A stretch of 64,000 bases of DNA, from positions 7,844-71,843 of the forward strand of contig CAZNUS010000002.1 in assembly GCA_964576385.1 (NCBI GenBank), written 5' to 3'. The stretch is from an uncultured Methanosarcinales archaeon. GTDB lineage: Archaea; Nanobdellota; Nanobdellia; Woesearchaeales; GW2011-AR9. Numbering within the stretch: the first letter of the stretch is position 1; every line of letters starts with the position of its first letter. A program made the translations under genes and the position numbers. This document shows positions 2,469 through 47,443 of this stretch, piece by piece. The notes below the pieces were generated by a model. The model had not been told where the DNA came from, did no database searches, and saw nothing but the letters and a program-made list of their open reading frames with translations.

Positions 2469-3080
2469 TTATTTTAATCGATAAAATTCATCATTCTTTT
2501 CAGATCTTTCAAAATTAAAGCCTATCTCTCTAAATAATTGTTCCACATTGTCAGGATCATAGATCCATCCATTTCTATATTGTGCTAACCCTCGAAGATG
2601 GTCTGGATCTAGATATTTTGCCCAGCGGATTAAAAAAGTATCAGAATCCCTTAATGGAAGCGAAACTAATAATCCTTGGTCTGCTACTCGCCGTGAATCA
2701 ACTAAGAGGTCTATGACTCCTCTACGAGTTGGAACATGTTCTAATATCTGCGGTAATAACGTAACATCAAATTGCCCATCGTCAAATGGAAGTTTTTTTC
2801 CATCACCTAAACAAAGGCTAATCTTTTCTGATAGGCCTTCCTTTTGGACTCTTGTCATTGCTCGTTGTAATCTTCTTTCAGAGATATCATAGCCGGTAGC
2901 GGATGATAATATTCCTTGGTTAATTAATTGGCGGATAATGTAAGCTTCAGCAGTTCCAACTTCCAGCACTGATCGAGGATCCTCAAAATGTTTTAATTCT
3001 TCAGATATTTTTTCAGGAGTTTTAAAAAATGCTGCCCAGGTTTCTGCCGACAACAGGTCATAAAAATCGTGGAATTTCAT
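2469..3080 (-). CDS. Class I SAM-dependent methyltransferase
   Basis: The motif I-like segment is VLEVGTAEA, followed by GYDISERRL. The acidic post-II region is LCLGDGKKLPFDDGQFDVTL. Confidence 0.7.
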   Translation of the reverse strand: MKFHDFYDLLSAETWAAFFKTPEKISEELKHFEDPRSVLEVGTAEAYIIRQLINQGILSSATGYDISERRLQRAMTRVQKEGLSEKISLCLGDGKKLPFDDGQFDVTLLPQILEHVPTRRGVIDLLVDSRRVADQGLLVSLPLRDSDTFLIRWAKYLDPDHLRGLAQYRNGWIYDPDNVEQLFREIGFNFERSEKNDEFYRLK

Positions 3081-15034: not shown

Positions 15035-15436
15035 ATGTTGGACCAATTATTTGATGACTTTGTTCGTAGTAGGAGATTAGAACTAATAGAAACATCTGAT
15101 AACCTTCAGGCAGCTGGTTTTAGGTTAAGTGCATTTTATGAAAAGAATATTTCTCCAGAAGTCATGAGGATAGAAAAGAAGGTAAATGAAAGTTGTTGTT
15201 ATGTGATTGGTTCAAATTCAGCATATCGCCTGACTATTAGTATTACTTATGCCTGTCTTGGAGACTATTTAACTTTGCTTTTACATGATGATCATTTTTT
15301 TACAAATATGGGTGTAAGAAAACAATTTGAGGGGTATCTCGGAAAACTAATTGCTCCAACCACGATGGTCAGATGTGAATTTGATTGTGATGAAGAAGGA
15401 ATTCAAGCAGTACTTGATTGCTTTTATCCTTGTTAA
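15035..15436 (+). CDS. hypothetical protein
   Basis: 133 aa ORF, Cys-rich C-terminus. Confidence 0.35.
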   Translation: MLDQLFDDFVRSRRLELIETSDNLQAAGFRLSAFYEKNISPEVMRIEKKVNESCCYVIGSNSAYRLTISITYACLGDYLTLLLHDDHFFTNMGVRKQFEGYLGKLIAPTTMVRCEFDCDEEGIQAVLDCFYPC

Positions 15437-19162: not shown

Positions 19163-21454
19163 TCAAATCTTTTTTCCCTTCAACATCAAGGAATTAACTA
19201 CCACACTCACCGAGCTTAAGGCCATAGCGCCTCCAGCAATCATCGGGCTTAACAACCATCCGGTAAAAGGATAAAGCGCACCGGCAGCAATTGGTATGCC
19301 TAAAACATTATAGACTAATGCCCAAAACATGTTCTGTCTGATCTTACTCATGGTTAGACGGCTTAATTTAATAGCTTTAGGAATATCTAACAAGCTATTT
19401 TTCATGAGGACAATATTACCGGATTCCATCGCCACATCAGTGCCTGAACCCATGGCAATACCTATGTCAGCCTGCGCCAAAGCAGGAGCATCATTAATGC
19501 CATCACCCACCATAGCTACTTTTCCTTTGCGCTGTAATTTTTTAACGTAACTAGCTTTGTCTTCAGGAAGAACCTCTGCAAAAAAGTCAGTGATTCCAAC
19601 TTTTGAAGCAATTGCTTTAGCCGTACGCTGATTATCTCCGGTAATCATGAATACTTTCAGTTTCAGCTTCTGTAGCCTACGGATAGCTTCTGGAGAATCT
19701 TCTTTTATCTCATCTGCCACAGCAATCATGCCTCTACATTTTTTTCCTTCAGTAAGAACCATTACAGTCTTACCTTGTTCTTCTAAAGCGTTAATTTCAT
19801 TTCTTGGCAAGGAAATGCCCAATGATTCCATCAGCTGCGGATTACCTAGGTGATATTCAGTTCTACCTACCATAGCTCTAACACCTTTCCCAGGGATGGC
19901 TTTGAAATGATACACTTTCTGCCAAGAAACTTTTTCTTGTACAGCTTTATTAACGATAGCTTCTGCTAAAGGATGCTCAGAGTTCTTCTCGATACTCCCA
20001 GCAATTTCCAAAAATCCCTTTTCATTGATTCCTTCAGGTATAATATCGGTTACTTCCGGTTTTCCTTTAGTTATAGTACCTGTTTTATCAAAGATAACTA
20101 TTTTTAACTTATGAGCAGTTTCTAACGCCTCTCCTCCTTTAATCAAAATACCTTCTTTAGCTCCTTTTCCCGTACCGACCATAATCGCTGTTGGTGTAGC
20201 TAATCCTAAGGCGCAAGGGCAAGCAATCACTAAAACAGCAACAGCAGTGATCAAAGCAAAACTTAAGGTTTCATCAAACAAAAAGTACCAACTTCCAAAA
20301 GTTAGTATGGAAATGATCACTACAACCGGTACAAAATAAGCGGAAACTGCATCAGCAAATCGTTGTATTGGCGCCTTTTTAGTCTGAGCTTCTTCAATTA
20401 AGCGAACTATCCTTGATAAAACAGTATCGCTGCCAACTTTGGTTGCTTTGAACGTAAAACTTCCTTGTTTATTAATGGTAGAGCCGATAACAAAATCTCC
20501 TTTTTTCTTTTCAATAGGGATGCTTTCCCCCGTTACTAAACTTTCATCAAGAGCAGAATGTCCATCAACAATGATACCATCAACAGGAACTTTTTCTCCA
20601 GGCTTAACAATGACTAAGTCATTAAGCTGTACATCTCCAATATCAATTTTTTGTTCTTTACCATTTCTAATAATCAAGGCCGTCTTCGCACCCATTTTCA
20701 TCAATTTAGTGATAGCTTCACTAGTTTTTCCTTTAGCGAGCATCTCTAAATACTTCCCGACAACAACTAGTGTTATAAGAACTGCAGCAGCTTCAAAATA
20801 CTGATCTGCTTCTGGCAGGAATAGGACAGCAAAAACAGAGTAGAAGTAAGCTGCGCTGGTACCAAGTGCAATTAGCGTATCCATATTTGCGCTTTTACTC
20901 TTTAAAGCGGCCCAGGCGCCTTGATAAAATGATTTTCCAATGTAAAATTGTACGGGGGTAGCTAGAAACCAAATGATAAAATTACGGAAAGGAATATCTT
21001 CTGGCATGAAGAGCATGCTTAATAACAGAGCAGGAAGCGAAAAGGCAGTGCTTAATACTATCTTCTGTTCCAATTTTCGCAGTTCTTTCTTTCGTAGCTG
21101 AGCTTCTTTTTTTGGATCCATCTCTTTAGCCGAATATGCTTTATAGCCCTTATTAACAATAACGCTGATTAGTTTATCTTCTTTTACTTGGATAGGATCA
21201 AATTCTACTGCCGCTTTTTCTGAAGAGAAGTTCACATTAGCAGAAACTACTCCAGGCGTCTTTAATAATGCCTTAGAGATGATAGTAGCGCAACTGGCGC
21301 AATGCATTCCGGATATTTTAAAATTGGCTCTAGTCATGCTTGCTTGTTTATTATTTCTACTATCAATATTTAATTTGTTATTTTCACTATCACCATTTAA
21401 TCCATCGTCAGCATTTAATTTCTGATTGCTATTTTGTTTATTAATTTCTTTCAT
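19163..21454 (-). CDS. copA: Copper-translocating P1B-type ATPase
   Basis: N-terminal HMA with GMHCASC. The TM CPC motif is ACPCALGLATP. DKTGT, TGDN and GDGINDAP are all present. Confidence 0.95.
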   Translation of the reverse strand: MKEINKQNSNQKLNADDGLNGDSENNKLNIDSRNNKQASMTRANFKISGMHCASCATIISKALLKTPGVVSANVNFSSEKAAVEFDPIQVKEDKLISVIVNKGYKAYSAKEMDPKKEAQLRKKELRKLEQKIVLSTAFSLPALLLSMLFMPEDIPFRNFIIWFLATPVQFYIGKSFYQGAWAALKSKSANMDTLIALGTSAAYFYSVFAVLFLPEADQYFEAAAVLITLVVVGKYLEMLAKGKTSEAITKLMKMGAKTALIIRNGKEQKIDIGDVQLNDLVIVKPGEKVPVDGIIVDGHSALDESLVTGESIPIEKKKGDFVIGSTINKQGSFTFKATKVGSDTVLSRIVRLIEEAQTKKAPIQRFADAVSAYFVPVVVIISILTFGSWYFLFDETLSFALITAVAVLVIACPCALGLATPTAIMVGTGKGAKEGILIKGGEALETAHKLKIVIFDKTGTITKGKPEVTDIIPEGINEKGFLEIAGSIEKNSEHPLAEAIVNKAVQEKVSWQKVYHFKAIPGKGVRAMVGRTEYHLGNPQLMESLGISLPRNEINALEEQGKTVMVLTEGKKCRGMIAVADEIKEDSPEAIRRLQKLKLKVFMITGDNQRTAKAIASKVGITDFFAEVLPEDKASYVKKLQRKGKVAMVGDGINDAPALAQADIGIAMGSGTDVAMESGNIVLMKNSLLDIPKAIKLSRLTMSKIRQNMFWALVYNVLGIPIAAGALYPFTGWLLSPMIAGGAMALSSVSVVVNSLMLKGKKI

Positions 21455-21539
21455 TTGTACACCATCATTCGTTTGTAGATATCTAATAGCCTAATATTTT
21501 TTGCCTCTAATCAACTTCTTATATTCTTCATAATGCTAT

Positions 21540-21872
21540 CTATCTTTCCCCTCGAATAATCTTACAGCAATACTCATTCATATGCTTATCAATCAGCGCT
21601 AGTAATGGCTTAATGGTAGCATCGTTTACTTGGTAGTAGCAGTGCTTTCCTTTACGTTCAGGAAAAACCATGCCGCAGTGCTCCAAGCGCCGAAGATTAT
21701 GGGAAACTAATGTCTGTTCCAAACCAGTTTCAGCACAGATCTCTTGTACACACTTCTTCCCCAACTTAAGGGTATTCACGATCTTGAGCCTATTGGCATT
21801 GGCTAAAGAGCTAAAAAAAAGCTTATAAGCCGCAGGGGGTATCTTGTTTATATCAATTGATTTTTTTATCAT
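21540..21872 (-). CDS. ArsR/SmtB-family metalloregulator
   Basis: The HTH is CVQEICAETGLEQTLVSHNLRRLEHCGMV. Cys residues flank it. Confidence 0.8.
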   Translation of the reverse strand: MIKKSIDINKIPPAAYKLFFSSLANANRLKIVNTLKLGKKCVQEICAETGLEQTLVSHNLRRLEHCGMVFPERKGKHCYYQVNDATIKPLLALIDKHMNEYCCKIIRGER

Positions 21873-21977
21873 ATGACTATATTTTCATATATCATTTATA
21901 AATGTTATGCTATTTTGTTAATCGCCTATTAGATTTTAACTGAGATTTTAAAATAAATAAAGATAATTAAAGCTTGT

Positions 21978-22397
21978 TTATTCAACAATCAGTTGTCCAA
22001 CCATATTTCGATGTCCATCTCCGCAGTAAACATTACAGCGGAATTTAAAGCTGCCTTTTTTGTCTGCAGTGAACGCTACAGATGTTTCTTGTCCAGCAGT
22101 GATGCCTTCAGATGAAACACCTAATTCCGGAATGGATATGCCATGGTAACCACTAACACCAACTATTTTTAAGGTAACTTCTTCTCCTTGTTTAACTTTA
22201 ATGACGGAAGGAGTAAATCCAAAATTATAGGCTTTAACTACTATCTCTTTAGTTGAAGCTCCCGTTTCTTTAGTTAAAGTTCCGCTTTTTTCCTGTGCAT
22301 CTGCAACCGAAGCCCCAGTGCTCTGTTCCTTGCTGCAACCGAGCAGAACCAAACTTAATATCATTAATACACTTAACAACACCTTCACTTGTCTCAT
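21978..22397 (-). CDS. Cupredoxin-domain lipoprotein (type-1 copper-like)
   Basis: Lipobox LLGCS. The cupredoxin ligand pattern is YHGISIPELGV ... FRCNVYCGDGHRNMVG. Confidence 0.7.
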   Translation of the reverse strand: MRQVKVLLSVLMILSLVLLGCSKEQSTGASVADAQEKSGTLTKETGASTKEIVVKAYNFGFTPSVIKVKQGEEVTLKIVGVSGYHGISIPELGVSSEGITAGQETSVAFTADKKGSFKFRCNVYCGDGHRNMVGQLIVE

Positions 22398-22501
22398 AGT
22401 TTTAACCTCCTTATTCTATTTAATAAATTTATAATTTTAAATATTTAACGTTGCCGATATATTAACTTATCTTTCAATATTTTTATGATCTTAAAACTAT
22501 T

Positions 22502-24019
22502 TTACCTTGCTGCTCCACAACCGCAACCGCCTCCACCCATGCTACAGCTGCCTCCAGTAGGTACTTTCGCTTTGTTAAGATCCTGGCTTACCGTAGCAGT
22601 ATCAACTTGTTCTTGAACGATAAAAATTCCTTGGAGCATACCCATAGCGCAGCTCCAGGAGATACTGCCCGTTTCTGTAGGAGTAAATTCTATAACTTGC
22701 TCTCCTGGTTTTATCTTAAAATTAAGCCCTAATTTTGGTACGACAATGGCGCTATTGCACCCATTTAATTCTTTACCATCAATAATCCATTTGACTGGAA
22801 CGTTTTTCTGTAAGATAAATTTATTTGGGCTCCATCCGCTATATTTGACATCCATACGTATCTCTTGGTATCCATCCTTAATCGTAAATGTGTTTTTAGC
22901 AGCATCATTTCCGCTGTCGCTTGTGGGAGTAAATGTTTCGCTTAATCCGCTAGTTAAGGAATTAAAATCATATCCGCTTCCGGTAAGAGCTAAACCGCGA
23001 TTAAGCATAATCAATCCCAATATTAAGATAAAAACACCGGAAAATTTTAATATTTTATACGTTGCTTTTGAGCCTACAAAACTGGCGAAATAGCCAAATC
23101 CCAGCATTACTGGTAACGTGCCCAGACCAAAGATAAATAACATTTTTGCTCCTTCCGATACGCTGCCAGTGCCTGCAGCTAAGATATACATCGCTTGTAA
23201 TGGTCCGCAAGCAATCATTAGTCCATTTAATAAACCAATGATTAAAGGGCTGTGGTGATGATGAGCTTCAGTGCTAACAAATTTTTCTATAAAACTTGGC
23301 CAGCGCCACTGAAATTTTCTTAATGAAGGAAAGATATTTAACATTTTTAATCCAAATATCATTAAAAATATTCCTGCAAAGATACCTACAAATCCCCTTA
23401 TAACTGGCGTGAATGCTATGATGCTTCCTAAGAATCCAAATATTGCCCCTATTACTGTGTATGATAATGTCTTGCCAAAAGCATAAGATAGATGCATCTT
23501 GTGCGGCTTTTTCCCTTGTTGTGCTCCTTTGGCAGTGTAAGAAACAACAAAACCACCGCACATAGCGATGCAATGAAATCCAGTTAATAGCCCGATGACA
23601 AATAACAAGCCGTAGCCAATATTTTGTCCAACTTCTGGTAGTTGTATACCGCTTAAATTAAAAATATATATCCCTGCTGCGATTAAGCCGATTAAAAGAA
23701 TAAACCATCCAACAAAACTACTAGAACTTTCTTTTTTAATTATATTTTCACTGATATCCAACTCTGCACAATGGTACCCTTTTTCTTCTATGGCCTTCTT
23801 AATATCAGCAATATTTGTTTTTTGCTCATCAAAATTGACTGTTACTATTTCTGTTTTATAATCAACATCTAAAGAATGTACTCCTTGTAATTTTAAAGCT
23901 TGCTTAGCGATAATTTTCTCACAGCTGTGGCAAGTCATACCTTTAGCTTTAAATTGTTTAGTCGTCATGAATACCCTCCTTGAAATATTTATTGAAGTAG
24001 TTACCCAACTTAGCACCAA
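22502..24019 (-). CDS. HMA-domain / polytopic membrane / C-terminal cupredoxin-like fusion protein
   Basis: The likely true start is M18 at 23968 (MTTKQF...). An HMA domain has MTCHSCEK. About 8 TM helices follow, with HCIAMCGG and a HHHH loop. The C-terminal cupredoxin-like domain has Cys/Met at the ligand positions (GCNSAIVVP...SWSCAMGM). The tail is GGSCSMGGGGCGCG. Confidence 0.6.
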   Translation of the reverse strand: MVLSWVTTSINISRRVFMTTKQFKAKGMTCHSCEKIIAKQALKLQGVHSLDVDYKTEIVTVNFDEQKTNIADIKKAIEEKGYHCAELDISENIIKKESSSSFVGWFILLIGLIAAGIYIFNLSGIQLPEVGQNIGYGLLFVIGLLTGFHCIAMCGGFVVSYTAKGAQQGKKPHKMHLSYAFGKTLSYTVIGAIFGFLGSIIAFTPVIRGFVGIFAGIFLMIFGLKMLNIFPSLRKFQWRWPSFIEKFVSTEAHHHHSPLIIGLLNGLMIACGPLQAMYILAAGTGSVSEGAKMLFIFGLGTLPVMLGFGYFASFVGSKATYKILKFSGVFILILGLIMLNRGLALTGSGYDFNSLTSGLSETFTPTSDSGNDAAKNTFTIKDGYQEIRMDVKYSGWSPNKFILQKNVPVKWIIDGKELNGCNSAIVVPKLGLNFKIKPGEQVIEFTPTETGSISWSCAMGMLQGIFIVQEQVDTATVSQDLNKAKVPTGGSCSMGGGGCGCGAAR

Positions 24020-31628: not shown

Positions 31629-33764
31629 ATGGTAAACTACCAATGTCCTAAATGCGGGATGAAATACAGCCTGCCCGGAAAGTGTACCATGGATGGTGCA
31701 AAGCTGATTAAACAGGAAGATCAGAAATATCCTTCTTCTTCTTCTGGTGTTCAAAAAACCAATCATAGAATGCATCGAAATTATAAACTGCATCAAGATG
31801 GTGAACATTCTAGGAATCATCATTCGCATCACGAAATGATGGTTCGGGATTTTAAGAAAAGATTCTTTATTTCCTTAGCGTTGACTTTTCCTGTACTTTT
31901 GCTAACTCCTTTGGTTCAAAAAGTACTTGGGTTGAATATCACTTTTAAAGGGGATATTTATGTACTATTTGCACTATCAGCAGTAGTGTTTTTTTACGCT
32001 GGATTACCGTTTCTTAAAGGAAGTATAGACGAATTAAAAAACAAGCTTCCGGGAATGATGACCTTGATTGCTACCGCTATTAGCAGTGCTTTTATTTATA
32101 GTTCTATAGTTGTATTTGGGCTGAAGGGAGAAATATTTTTCTGGGAACTAGTTACTCTTATTGATATAATGCTTCTGGGGCACTGGATAGAAATGCGTTC
32201 AGTAATGGGGGCTTCTAAAGCTTTGGAAGCGCTGGCAAAACTGGTGCCTTCTGAAGCCCATTTGGTAAAAGGAAAAAGAATAATGAATGTTCCTATTTCT
32301 AATTTAGTTCCAGGTGATATTGTTTTAGTTAAGCCGGGAGAAAAAGTACCTTCTGATGGAATTATCTTTCGTGGGGAGAGCAGCTTAAATGAATCAATGT
32401 TAACGGGGGAGTCAAAACCAGTAAGCAAAAAAAAAGGAGATAAAGTAATCGGCGCTTCCATTAATGGGGAAGGGGCTTTATACATAAAAATAACTAATAC
32501 CGGAGAGAAAACTTACCTTTCACAAGTAATTCAATTAGTTAAACAAGCGCAAGAATCAAAATCAAAAACTCAGGATTTAGCTAACAGAGCAGCTACTTGG
32601 TTGACTCTGATTTCAATTTCTATTGGAACTCTTACGCTGGCCCTATGGCTTATGCTTGGAAAAGATCTTGCATTTGGTCTGGAAAGGATGGTAACTATTA
32701 TGATTATTACTTGTCCCCATGCTTTAGGTTTAGCAGTTCCTTTAGTTGTGGCCGTATCTACTGCAATATCTGCAAAAAATGGTTTTCTTATTAGAGATAG
32801 AGTTGCTTTTGAGAATATTAGGGATATAGATACGATTGTTTTCGACAAGACAGGGACTCTTACTAAAGGTGAGTTTGGCGTAACTGATATAGTTACCGAT
32901 GGATTAACTAAAAAAGAAGTATTGTTTTATGCTGCATCATTGGAGATTAATTCAGAGCATCCTATCGCTAAAGGTATAGTCAAAAAGGCAACAGAAGAAA
33001 GGATAAGGATTGGTAAGACTAAAAAATTTAAGGCTCTTCCAGGAAAGGGTATTCAGGGTGTTATTGGTAAGAAAGATATAATGGTGGTTGGTCCTTCCTA
33101 TCTTGCTGAAAAAGGCATAAAGCCAAATAAGATCAGCATTGAATTAGAACATCAAGGAAAAACAGTAATTTACATTCTTATTAAAAATAAGCTATTTGGA
33201 GCAATAGCTCTTGCTGATATCATCAGAGAAGAATCAAAGGAAGCAATCAGTACCTTAAAATCCATGGGGATAAAATGTATGATGTTAACTGGTGATAATC
33301 AAAAAGTTGCTGAATGGGTTTCTAAAGAATTAGGGTTGGATGATTTTTTTGCAGGAGTTCTACCAGATCAGAAAGCTAAAACGATCAAAAAGATTCAATC
33401 AAGAGGGTTAAAAGTAGTCATGGTAGGAGACGGTGTAAATGATGCTCCAGCGTTGGTGCAGGCCGATGCAGGTATCGCTATTGGCGCTGGAACGGACGTT
33501 GCTATAGAATCTGCTGATATAGTTTTAGTCAGGAATGATCCTCGTGATGTTGCTTCAATAATAGGTTTAGCTAAAGCAACGTATTCCAAAATGAAACAAA
33601 ATTTACTATGGGCTACTGGATATAATATTGTTGCTATCCCTCTGGCAGCCGGAGTGATGTATCACCAAGGGTTATTATTAAGCCCTGCTTTAGGAGCAGT
33701 ATTTATGTCTTTAAGTACGATCGTTGTAGCTATTAATGCCCGGCTGTTAAAGCTAAAGAAGTAA
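31629..33764 (+). CDS. copB: P1B-type heavy-metal ATPase, CopB-like (CPH motif, His-rich N-terminus)
   Basis: N-terminal CPKCG...C zinc-ribbon-like segment, then a His-rich stretch (HRMHRNYKLHQDGEHSRNHHSHHE). TM motif ITCPHALGLAVP. DKTGT and GDGVNDAP are present. Confidence 0.9.
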   Translation: MVNYQCPKCGMKYSLPGKCTMDGAKLIKQEDQKYPSSSSGVQKTNHRMHRNYKLHQDGEHSRNHHSHHEMMVRDFKKRFFISLALTFPVLLLTPLVQKVLGLNITFKGDIYVLFALSAVVFFYAGLPFLKGSIDELKNKLPGMMTLIATAISSAFIYSSIVVFGLKGEIFFWELVTLIDIMLLGHWIEMRSVMGASKALEALAKLVPSEAHLVKGKRIMNVPISNLVPGDIVLVKPGEKVPSDGIIFRGESSLNESMLTGESKPVSKKKGDKVIGASINGEGALYIKITNTGEKTYLSQVIQLVKQAQESKSKTQDLANRAATWLTLISISIGTLTLALWLMLGKDLAFGLERMVTIMIITCPHALGLAVPLVVAVSTAISAKNGFLIRDRVAFENIRDIDTIVFDKTGTLTKGEFGVTDIVTDGLTKKEVLFYAASLEINSEHPIAKGIVKKATEERIRIGKTKKFKALPGKGIQGVIGKKDIMVVGPSYLAEKGIKPNKISIELEHQGKTVIYILIKNKLFGAIALADIIREESKEAISTLKSMGIKCMMLTGDNQKVAEWVSKELGLDDFFAGVLPDQKAKTIKKIQSRGLKVVMVGDGVNDAPALVQADAGIAIGAGTDVAIESADIVLVRNDPRDVASIIGLAKATYSKMKQNLLWATGYNIVAIPLAAGVMYHQGLLLSPALGAVFMSLSTIVVAINARLLKLKK

Positions 33765-46233: not shown

Positions 46234-47085
46234 ATGGGTAGAACAAATAGCGAGGAAGTACTTCATCATGCTAAAGAAGTAGCAACTGAAGTAGGTTTTT
46301 TTATCACTAAATTTCGCTATTCTCCTCTTACAAGAGAGAAAGACCCTTCTCCCAGCACAATATTTGATGACTATGCCGATAGATATTTTAGAGATAGATT
46401 AGAGAGAAGAACTGGTATTCCAGTATTTACAGAAATCAGTGACGACATCTCTAGGAGATTAAAATTAGAACACTTTTGGTGGGTTGATCCGATTGATGGA
46501 ACTGCTTCTTTTGAAAAACATTTGGCAGATTTTGCCATATCCTTGGGGAATGTTAATCTCGGAAAAGTAATTGGCGGTGTTATTTGTGAACCGCATCCAG
46601 ATAGGATGGTCATGAATTTTGCGATGGAGGGGAGAGGAGCATATTCTCAAAGAATAACTTACAACAAGAGTGGTAATCCTAGCTTTATACAGCCGAGAAG
46701 AATGCGGGTGTCCAAGCGTAAAAGAGATTTAGTTGCCATACTTGGCAGGAGCGAAGATCAACTTACCCGTCAGCTGTACAAAGAATTAGGATTTTCAGAA
46801 AAAGAAGGGATTAGGAATTTTACCGGTAAGGCTTTAGCTATAGCTAGAGGTGAAGCAGATGTTTATGTATTTGTAAATAAGGTTCATGATAAAACCTATA
46901 AGGCTTGGGATACCGCAGCCGCTAACGTTATTCTCAATGAAGCGGGGGGTAGAATAACTGATTTAGATGGGAAAGCCTTAAGTTATACGGCAAGGGATCC
47001 AACACATCTTGGCGGCATAGTTATGAGTAATGGATATAGGCATGCTGATATTTGTGAAAAATTAAGGGATGTGTTTAAAACTTAA
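46234..47085 (+). CDS. Inositol monophosphatase / CysQ-family phosphatase
   Basis: The WVDPIDGT motif. The start lies 2 nt after the upstream stop. Confidence 0.8.
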   Translation: MGRTNSEEVLHHAKEVATEVGFFITKFRYSPLTREKDPSPSTIFDDYADRYFRDRLERRTGIPVFTEISDDISRRLKLEHFWWVDPIDGTASFEKHLADFAISLGNVNLGKVIGGVICEPHPDRMVMNFAMEGRGAYSQRITYNKSGNPSFIQPRRMRVSKRKRDLVAILGRSEDQLTRQLYKELGFSEKEGIRNFTGKALAIARGEADVYVFVNKVHDKTYKAWDTAAANVILNEAGGRITDLDGKALSYTARDPTHLGGIVMSNGYRHADICEKLRDVFKT

Positions 47086-47221: not shown

Positions 47222-47365
47222 GCCGGGGTAGCAAAGCCTGGCCAAAAACTGTATGTGAAAGCATCAGTTAGGCTCAATGCGCAGGACTTAAGGAGCAGCC
47301 AGCGGATGCTGGTTAAGCAATCCTGTTCCTTAGTGGATTCGGGGGTTCAAATCCCTTCCCCGGCA
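47222..47365 (+). tRNA. tRNA-Leu(UAA) with two introns (D-loop region and 37/38)
   Basis: Acceptor gccgggg/ccccggc, discriminator A. D-arm gca-aagcctggccaaaa...tgc. Anticodon stem cagga/tcctg with loop cuUAAg and a 27-nt intron. Long variable arm ttccttagtggattc. T-arm ggggg-ttcaaat-ccctt. Total 144 nt. Confidence 0.75.
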
Positions 47366-47402
47366 TATTTTATTTAATCCATTGATTGCCATTGTTATTA
47401 TA

Positions 47403-47443
<41 letters not shown>

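Follow-up and report, generated by a model that had tools for sequence, protein, structure and literature searches.

The question raised by this locus is whether a segment of 144 nt that tRNA finders pass over is a working tRNA-Leu(UAA) gene interrupted by two introns, one of them in the D-loop. The earlier note had proposed such a gene in the window, by which we mean the whole 64,000-nt stretch of DNA analysed here. At its default settings, ARAGORN reported 0 tRNA genes in the whole window, and nothing appeared at the tRNA-Leu locus when introns were allowed at default stringency. Rfam at its gathering threshold likewise gave 0 matches, and a permissive Rfam scan returned only the 3' half of the locus, misfolded and at 15.4 bits, together with chance matches. 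ARAGORN run with -ps85 on the whole window made 21 calls, mostly spurious and inside open reading frames, and these were left unused. One T-loop-like match at position 15209 of the window proved not to be a tRNA.

When both segments were excised at junctions guided by the BHB splice motif described below, ARAGORN recognized a clean class II cloverleaf of tRNA-Leu(UAA) with a score of 114.5. The spliced product of 86 nt has an acceptor stem of 7 bp (GCCGGGG/CCCCGGC) followed by the discriminator A73, a D-stem GCA/UGC, an anticodon stem of 5 bp (CAGGA/UCCUG) with the loop CUUAAGA, and a T-stem of 5 bp. The acceptor stem, T-arm, long variable arm and anticodon stem cagga/tcctg that had been called clean on first reading are thus all in place. 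Its 15-nt variable arm, UAA anticodon, A73 and D-loop AGCCUGGCCAA, which is of the AGCCUGGNCAA type, are those of a class II tRNA-Leu, and the same D-loop motif is present in archaeal tRNA-Leu genes of many lineages. The three exons are collinear on one strand within 144 nt, so the gene is neither split nor permuted. In a grid of two-segment deletions that varied positions and lengths, 1069 of the 7366 distinct variants gave a tRNA-Leu call; the same grid applied to dinucleotide-preserving shuffles gave tRNA calls in none of 60. The tRNA-Leu gene stands far beyond chance. Its parts and surroundings are collected in Table 1.

Table 1 Coordinates of the tRNA-Leu(UAA) gene, its parts and other features. 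Positions refer to the window unless a contig is named.
Feature	Position	Strand	Description
P-type (E1-E2) ATPases and HMA-DsbD-cupredoxin fusion protein	19163-24019 and 31629-33764		Two ATPases, one with HMA domain (19163-21454), and one fusion protein
Inositol-monophosphatase/CysQ-family protein	46234-47085	+	Directly upstream of the tRNA-Leu gene
A/T box TTTATAAA	47188..47195	+	Candidate TATA element of the archaeal type, 27-34 nt before the mature 5' end
tRNA-Leu(UAA) gene, entire	47222..47365	+	144 nt (86 nt exons + 58 nt introns), insertions at D-loop 3' edge and 37/38; order: GCCGGGG UA GCAA AGCCUGGCCAA (intron AAACUGUAUGUGAAAGCAUCAGUUAGGCUCA) A UGC G CAGGA CUUAAG (intron GAGCAGCCAGCGGAUGCUGGUUAAGCA) A UCCUG UUCCUUAGUGGAUUC GGGGG UUCAAAU CCCUU CCCCGGC A
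Exon 1	47222..47245	+	Acceptor 5' strand, U8 A9, D-stem 5' strand GCAA, D-loop; L010 1571-1594, no differences; end uncertain by +/-1 nt (A-run)
Intron 1	47246..47276	+	31 nt, D-loop/D-stem boundary, position 21/22
Intron 1 hairpin	47253-47264	+	AUGU-GAAA-GCAU
Exon 2	47277..47292	+	A22, UGC (D-stem 3' strand), G26, CAGGA (anticodon stem 5' strand), C32 U33 U34 A35 A36 G37; same as L010; cloverleaf by ARAGORN
Anticodon UAA	47289-47291	+	Within exon 2
Intron 2	47293..47319	+	27 nt, canonical position 37/38
Exon 3	47320..47365	+	A38, UCCUG, variable arm, T-arm GGGGG-UUCAAAU-CCCUU, CCCCGGC, A73; 100% identity to L010 1634-1679, 46 nt
T-rich tract UAUUUUAUUU	47366..47375	+	Directly 3' of the tRNA-Leu gene
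(ATT)16 microsatellite	47391-47439		Follows directly on the 3' side of the tRNA-Leu gene; TRF score 70
A/T box TTTAAATA	49777-49784		27-34 nt upstream of the tRNA-Met gene
tRNA-Met/Ile2(CAU)	49811-49951	+	Introns: 44 nt at 37/38 (49850-49893), 22 nt in T-loop at 59/60 (49916-49937)
tRNA-Ser(GGA)	49958-50086	+	Introns: 26 nt in anticodon stem at 29/30 (49988-50013), 19 nt at 37/38 (50022-50040)
L113	Metagenome contig Ga0209541_10123159		DPANN-like tRNA-Leu(UAA)
L062	Hain groundwater metagenome contig, 2522-2680	-	DPANN-like tRNA-Leu(UAA)

The decisive evidence comes from a relative. A scan of one genome per species for CTTAAG...GGTTCRAATCCNNNCCCCGGCA gave 34 loci, among them L010, which lies on contig JACPCC010000075.1, part of a Candidatus Woesearchaeota MAG whose GC content of 35% equals that of the window. 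Its tRNA-Leu(UAA) is identical to the predicted exons of the window at 86 of 86 positions. L010 has no D-loop insertion, GGCCAAAUGCG running uninterrupted where the window has 31 nt, and its 37/38 intron, CAACCCAAAGAAUGGGAGAAGUC, is 23 nt long and unrelated to intron 2 of the window. A NUDIX hydrolase gene comes after the tRNA gene in both (about 51% amino acid identity), and BLAST found no similarity between the two in flanks or introns. The two loci are positional orthologues. By this comparison, one insertion is 31 nt long and the other 27 nt; the 27 nt first counted after position 37 therefore stand, while the estimate of about 29 nt in the D-loop has to be raised to 31. The junction of intron 1 slides 1 nt either way within an A-run, so that 20b/21 or 22/23 are possible besides 21/22. 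The insertion boundaries read from L010 are also the cut sites predicted from BHB geometry. The twice-interrupted tRNA-Leu(UAA) with one D-loop intron is thus borne out by the orthologous exons, the spliced cloverleaf and the shuffled controls.

The single-intron relatives also explain the silence of Rfam. With its tRNA model (gathering score 29), L010, carrying the 37/38 intron only, reaches 43.1 bits, and L113, a metagenomic relative carrying the D-loop intron only, reaches 49.5 bits. The unspliced window gene fails because two large insertions lie in one gene, and we do not count this failure against it. The earlier note had named a locus that fails to score as a tRNA as what would speak against its reading; to the letter, this is what Rfam returns for the unspliced locus, whereas the single-intron orthologues score well above the threshold.

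One alternative is that the locus is a decaying pseudogene, a tRNA-Leu disabled by a D-loop insertion that is never removed. It would accommodate the absence of calls by default ARAGORN and by Rfam at the gathering threshold, the minimum free energy (MFE) fold of the D-arm region, which is not a BHB, and the lack of the D-loop insertion in L010, the closest orthologue. Substitutions would be expected in a pseudogene, however, and every exon position is kept although the adjacent protein is only about 51% identical and flanks and introns are unrelated, which argues that the exons are under strong purifying selection and belong to a working gene. Insertion boundaries exactly at the BHB-predicted cuts, an intron at the same junction carried independently by L113 and L062 with a compensatory change, and two neighbouring tRNA genes of the same design also count against decay. 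We therefore consider a pseudogene very unlikely.

A different structure or identity has also to be weighed against the working tRNA-Leu(UAA) gene. At relaxed stringency (-ps80, -ps70), ARAGORN proposes a tRNA-Ile(GAU) with a single 58-nt intron at 24/25, and blind enumeration of deletions scores a register with shifted 37/38 junctions, giving Leu with anticodon AAG, slightly higher than the UAA register (119.1 vs 114.5 in ARAGORN). However, the Ile(GAU) model comes with a defective D-arm and is called only at thresholds below the default, the AAG register puts the junctions outside the BHB bulges, and from L010 the mature tRNA must read ...CAGGA-CUUAAGA-UCCUG..., with UAA as its anticodon. 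To our knowledge, archaea normally have no A34 Leu tRNAs. Such readings retain only a marginal probability.

The bulge-helix-bulge motif (BHB) consists of a 4-bp helix between two 3-nt bulges, and the first two anticodon nucleotides pair with the intron (PMC4090602). In the tRNA-Leu gene of the window, each of the two junction pairs can be accommodated in 3-nt bulges on either side of a 4-bp helix. These BHB conformers are 0.9-1.5 kcal/mol less stable than the MFE, and when either intron region is folded without constraints, its MFE structure is not the BHB. Intron 2 matches the definition, anticodon pairing included: its UAAG pairs with C32 U33 U34 A35 to form the central helix, with the bulges A36 G37↓G and C A↓A38 (arrows mark the cuts). 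Its BHB-constrained fold has -14.2 kcal/mol against -15.1 kcal/mol for the MFE, with a 5' bulge of 7 nt and not 3 nt, and the strict 3-nt-bulge BHB, which includes a G.G mismatch, has -10.6 kcal/mol.

Intron 1 is less regular. The GGCU near its 3' end can pair with G18 G19 C20 C20a (G.U, G-C, C-G, C-G), and the resulting bulges AA↓A and CA↓A reproduce the junction GGCCAA↓AUGCG read from L010. This BHB-like conformer has -14.3 kcal/mol, compared with -15.8 kcal/mol for a competing AGCCUG/UAGGCU fold. Its outer helix is discontinuous, with six nucleotides of the 5' strand left unpaired between the D-stem and the central helix, and one extra unpaired A (47270) separates the inner helix from the central one. 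Within the intron are an AACUG/CAGUU helix and the GAAA-capped hairpin that had been noticed at the outset; the intron hairpin folds with -7.4 kcal/mol (z = -1.9).

Further evidence on intron 1 comes from L113 and L062, in which an intron likewise interrupts this D-loop junction (YCAA↓AUGCG) and G18 G19 N20 C20a form a helix of the same type with the intron's 3' end. This central helix reads GGCC/GGCU in the window and GGUC/GACU in the two relatives, the change of C20 to U being matched by G to A in the intron; as judged from the three sequences compared, this exchange is compensatory. L113 has the anticodon stem and variable arm of the window gene, and L062 has the same anticodon stem with a variable arm that is off at a few positions. 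Their introns, of 20 and 19 nt, are unlike that of the window in being unrelated to it, in their regular geometry (GGUC-AAU/AAA-CUUC...GAAG-GACU-AG↓A) and in having no extra A; L113 is without a 37/38 intron, and L062 has a third intron at 9/10. The intron 1 sequence itself had no match in any of the 155 fetched loci, and BLAST of the three window tRNA precursors against all fetched loci gave exon matches only.

The isoacceptor invites a third comparison, as tRNA-Leu(UAA) is the classic host of the trnL group I intron in bacteria and plastids, which sits between anticodon positions 34 and 35 and whose catalytic core exceeds 200 nt. By analogy, the insertions might be self-splicing or otherwise independent of the archaeal splicing endonuclease (EndA), and group I introns do occur in archaea (PMC6125680). 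However, insertions of 31 and 27 nt fall far short of the length of a group I or group II core, and this size effectively refutes the idea. Moreover, neither position, 21/22 or 37/38, falls between 34 and 35, both insertions can form BHB motifs, and no Rfam intron family matched in the gathering-threshold and permissive scans. We see next to no chance that self-splicing applies here.

As for the host, an argininosuccinate synthase (ArgG) encoded in the window shares 90% identity with a protein of Candidatus Woesearchaeota, with other top matches in Micrarchaeota and Aenigmarchaeota, and genes for diphthamide synthase, translin, a RIO-type kinase and FtsZ are present in the window as well. We take the host to be an archaeon of the DPANN group, most likely Woesearchaeota-like. 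We are confident in reading the locus as a functional class II tRNA-Leu(UAA) gene of such a low-GC archaeon, with two introns of the BHB type that are predicted to be spliced by proteins.

The gene would be transcribed alone from the A/T box about 30 nt upstream, its putative promoter, and transcription would stop at the T-rich tract, which is the likely terminator. The tRNA-Met gene is preceded, at the same distance, by a similar box. In the precursor, pairing of UAAG in intron 2 with C32-U33-U34-A35 would bring the junctions at 37/38 into a canonical arrangement, with AG↓G and CA↓A as the bulges, while pairing of GGCU in intron 1 with G18-G19-C20-C20a would set the other two junctions in AA↓A and CA↓A beside the D-stem, in a relaxed motif. 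EndA would then cut at four sites and an RtcB-type ligase would join the three exons. The encoded 3' end has no CCA, the T-rich tract coming next, and CCA would be added afterwards to the 86-nt tRNA. Cleavage, ligation and CCA addition are assigned here from established archaeal tRNA splicing; among the 51 window ORFs of at least 150 aa, there was no Pfam match to tRNA_int_endo (EndA) or RtcB. Removal of the D-loop intron would require an endonuclease tolerant of relaxed motifs away from the anticodon loop, and the relaxed-specificity splicing endonuclease that the earlier note had supposed in the host agrees with the literature (PMC5829648). An intron-free second copy of tRNA-Leu(UAA), if one exists elsewhere in the genome, may make the window copy dispensable.

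Two further tRNA genes, tRNA-Met/Ile2(CAU) and tRNA-Ser(GGA), lie 2.4 kb downstream, and each needs two excisions for a clean cloverleaf. Spliced in silico, they score 120.3 and 116.7 in ARAGORN, respectively. At the 29/30 intron of tRNA-Ser(GGA), the central helix is clean (GCGC/GCGU) and has AA↓A and UA↓G as its bulges; the BHB of the 37/38 intron of this gene is poor. Since tRNA-Ser starts 6 nt past the end of tRNA-Met, the two are probably co-transcribed. All three tRNA genes of the window thus have two introns each, and all are missed by default ARAGORN and Rfam.

Archaeal tRNA genes are known to carry up to three introns, also at noncanonical positions, with Thermoproteales and Thaumarchaeota as the best-known cases (PMC8450103, PMC4090602). 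The nearest counterpart is pre-tRNA-Glu(UUC) of Methanopyrus kandleri, with a D-loop intron at 20b/21 in a relaxed HBh' motif and a canonical 37/38 intron (Kaneta et al. 2018, PMC5829648); pre-tRNA-Thr of A. pernix likewise has a D-loop intron (PMC5829648). The window gene resembles the M. kandleri gene in having two introns at essentially the same places, the 3' part of the D-loop and 37/38, of which the D-loop one has a relaxed BHB. It differs in being a class II Leu gene and not a class I Glu gene, and in belonging to a low-GC DPANN archaeon and not a hyperthermophilic euryarchaeon. [quoted passage not shown] Thermoproteales also have several introns per gene (BHB, hBH or HBh') at noncanonical positions whose presence varies between related genomes, as in tRNA-Pro(UGG) of Pyrobaculum islandicum with introns at 25/26, 56/57 and 37/38 (PMC4090602; PMC8450103). 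[quoted passage not shown]

How widespread such genes are was seen in a metagenome scan for tRNA-Leu(UAA) with 15-45 extra nt between D-loop and anticodon, which gave at least 120 matches, all counts being lower bounds. Among the matches listed, 96 of 120 (within L036-L155) belong to one tRNA-Leu(UAA) family with a D-arm intron of 15-25 nt and a 37/38 intron of about 15 nt; this family of at least 96 members has a CCAA/UUGG central helix, at least 68 distinct intron cores and at least 31 different inner helices. On the contig of one member, L042 (e.g. 2860-2958), the PheRS beta subunit is 82% identical to that of Candidatus Nitrosopelagicus, which places L042 in Thaumarchaeota and with it, judging from this one member checked, probably the whole family. 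[quoted passage not shown] The thaumarchaeal D-arm sequence and the taxon names had no occurrences in the tRNAscan-SE 2.0 supplements. Like the window gene, the family combines this isoacceptor with D-arm and 37/38 introns and a central helix in which exon bases of the D-loop pair with the intron's 3' end. It differs in a junction about 2 nt further 3' (...CCAAAG↓GC...), in the helix (CCAA/UUGG versus GGCC/GGCU), in its shorter introns and in unrelated exon sequences. Further listed matches come from DPANN-like genes whose introns sit elsewhere in the tRNA, in some cases three to a gene.

The gene layout is therefore already documented in several archaeal groups and reveals no new mechanism. 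The earlier note was right that multiple and noncanonical introns are known from archaea; its restriction to a few lineages was too narrow, as the metagenome matches, the probably thaumarchaeal family among them, show them to be commoner. What the locus adds is a case of noncanonical tRNA introns in Woesearchaeota-like archaea, with orthologues having and lacking the intron. DPANN genomes surveyed previously, including one Woesearchaeota MAG, showed increased tRNA gene disruption, and their incomplete tRNA sets were taken to point to undetected disrupted genes (PMC5829648). Because all three window tRNA genes are missed by default finders, genomes of this lineage would look tRNA-deficient, with an apparent lack of tRNA-Leu(UAA), tRNA-Met/Ile2(CAU) and tRNA-Ser(GGA), in line with that remark. 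The main practical value lies in the annotation of DPANN tRNA sets and in concrete substrates for probing how broad the specificity of the DPANN splicing endonuclease is.

A more tentative reading, which we hold to be possible but doubtful, is that the lineage processes its D-loop, T-loop (59/60) and anticodon-stem (29/30) introns with a DPANN alpha4-type EndA that has only a C-terminal 'L3' loop, and that the presence or absence of the D-loop intron in genomes whose exons are the same reflects a recent gain or loss in DPANN, possibly by transposition. The link between an alpha4 EndA with L3 loop and noncanonical introns in DPANN was proposed from genome correlations only (PMC5829648). If it is true, the three-gene cluster of the window would be a ready-made set of substrates.

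Several minor observations accompany these results. The inositol-monophosphatase-family protein encoded upstream of the tRNA-Leu gene has relatives of at most 38% identity among 5.8 billion proteins, its own copy on a 1.4-kb contig aside. The ATPase and HMA-DsbD-cupredoxin genes look like a cluster for handling heavy metals or copper, unusual for a small DPANN genome. On the contig of L010, a second tRNA gene (2792-2902, +; Rfam 55.3 bits) with a 40-nt anticodon-loop insertion lies downstream of the NUDIX gene, at the place where the window has a gene for a PEP-utilising enzyme. Among the metagenome loci, the DPANN-like tRNA-Leu(UAA) genes L062, L069 (5647-5830, -) and L147 (2368-2478, -) have an apparent third intron at 9/10, right after U8 A9; these introns of 13-32 nt, each ending in ...AGA, occur besides D-loop or anticodon-arm introns and 37/38 introns. 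Finally, L004 (5150-5309, +), L099 and L105 hold a tRNA-Leu(UAA) of an uncultured archaeon with about 30% GC, in which an anticodon-stem insertion containing a decoy CTTAAG accompanies the 37/38 intron.
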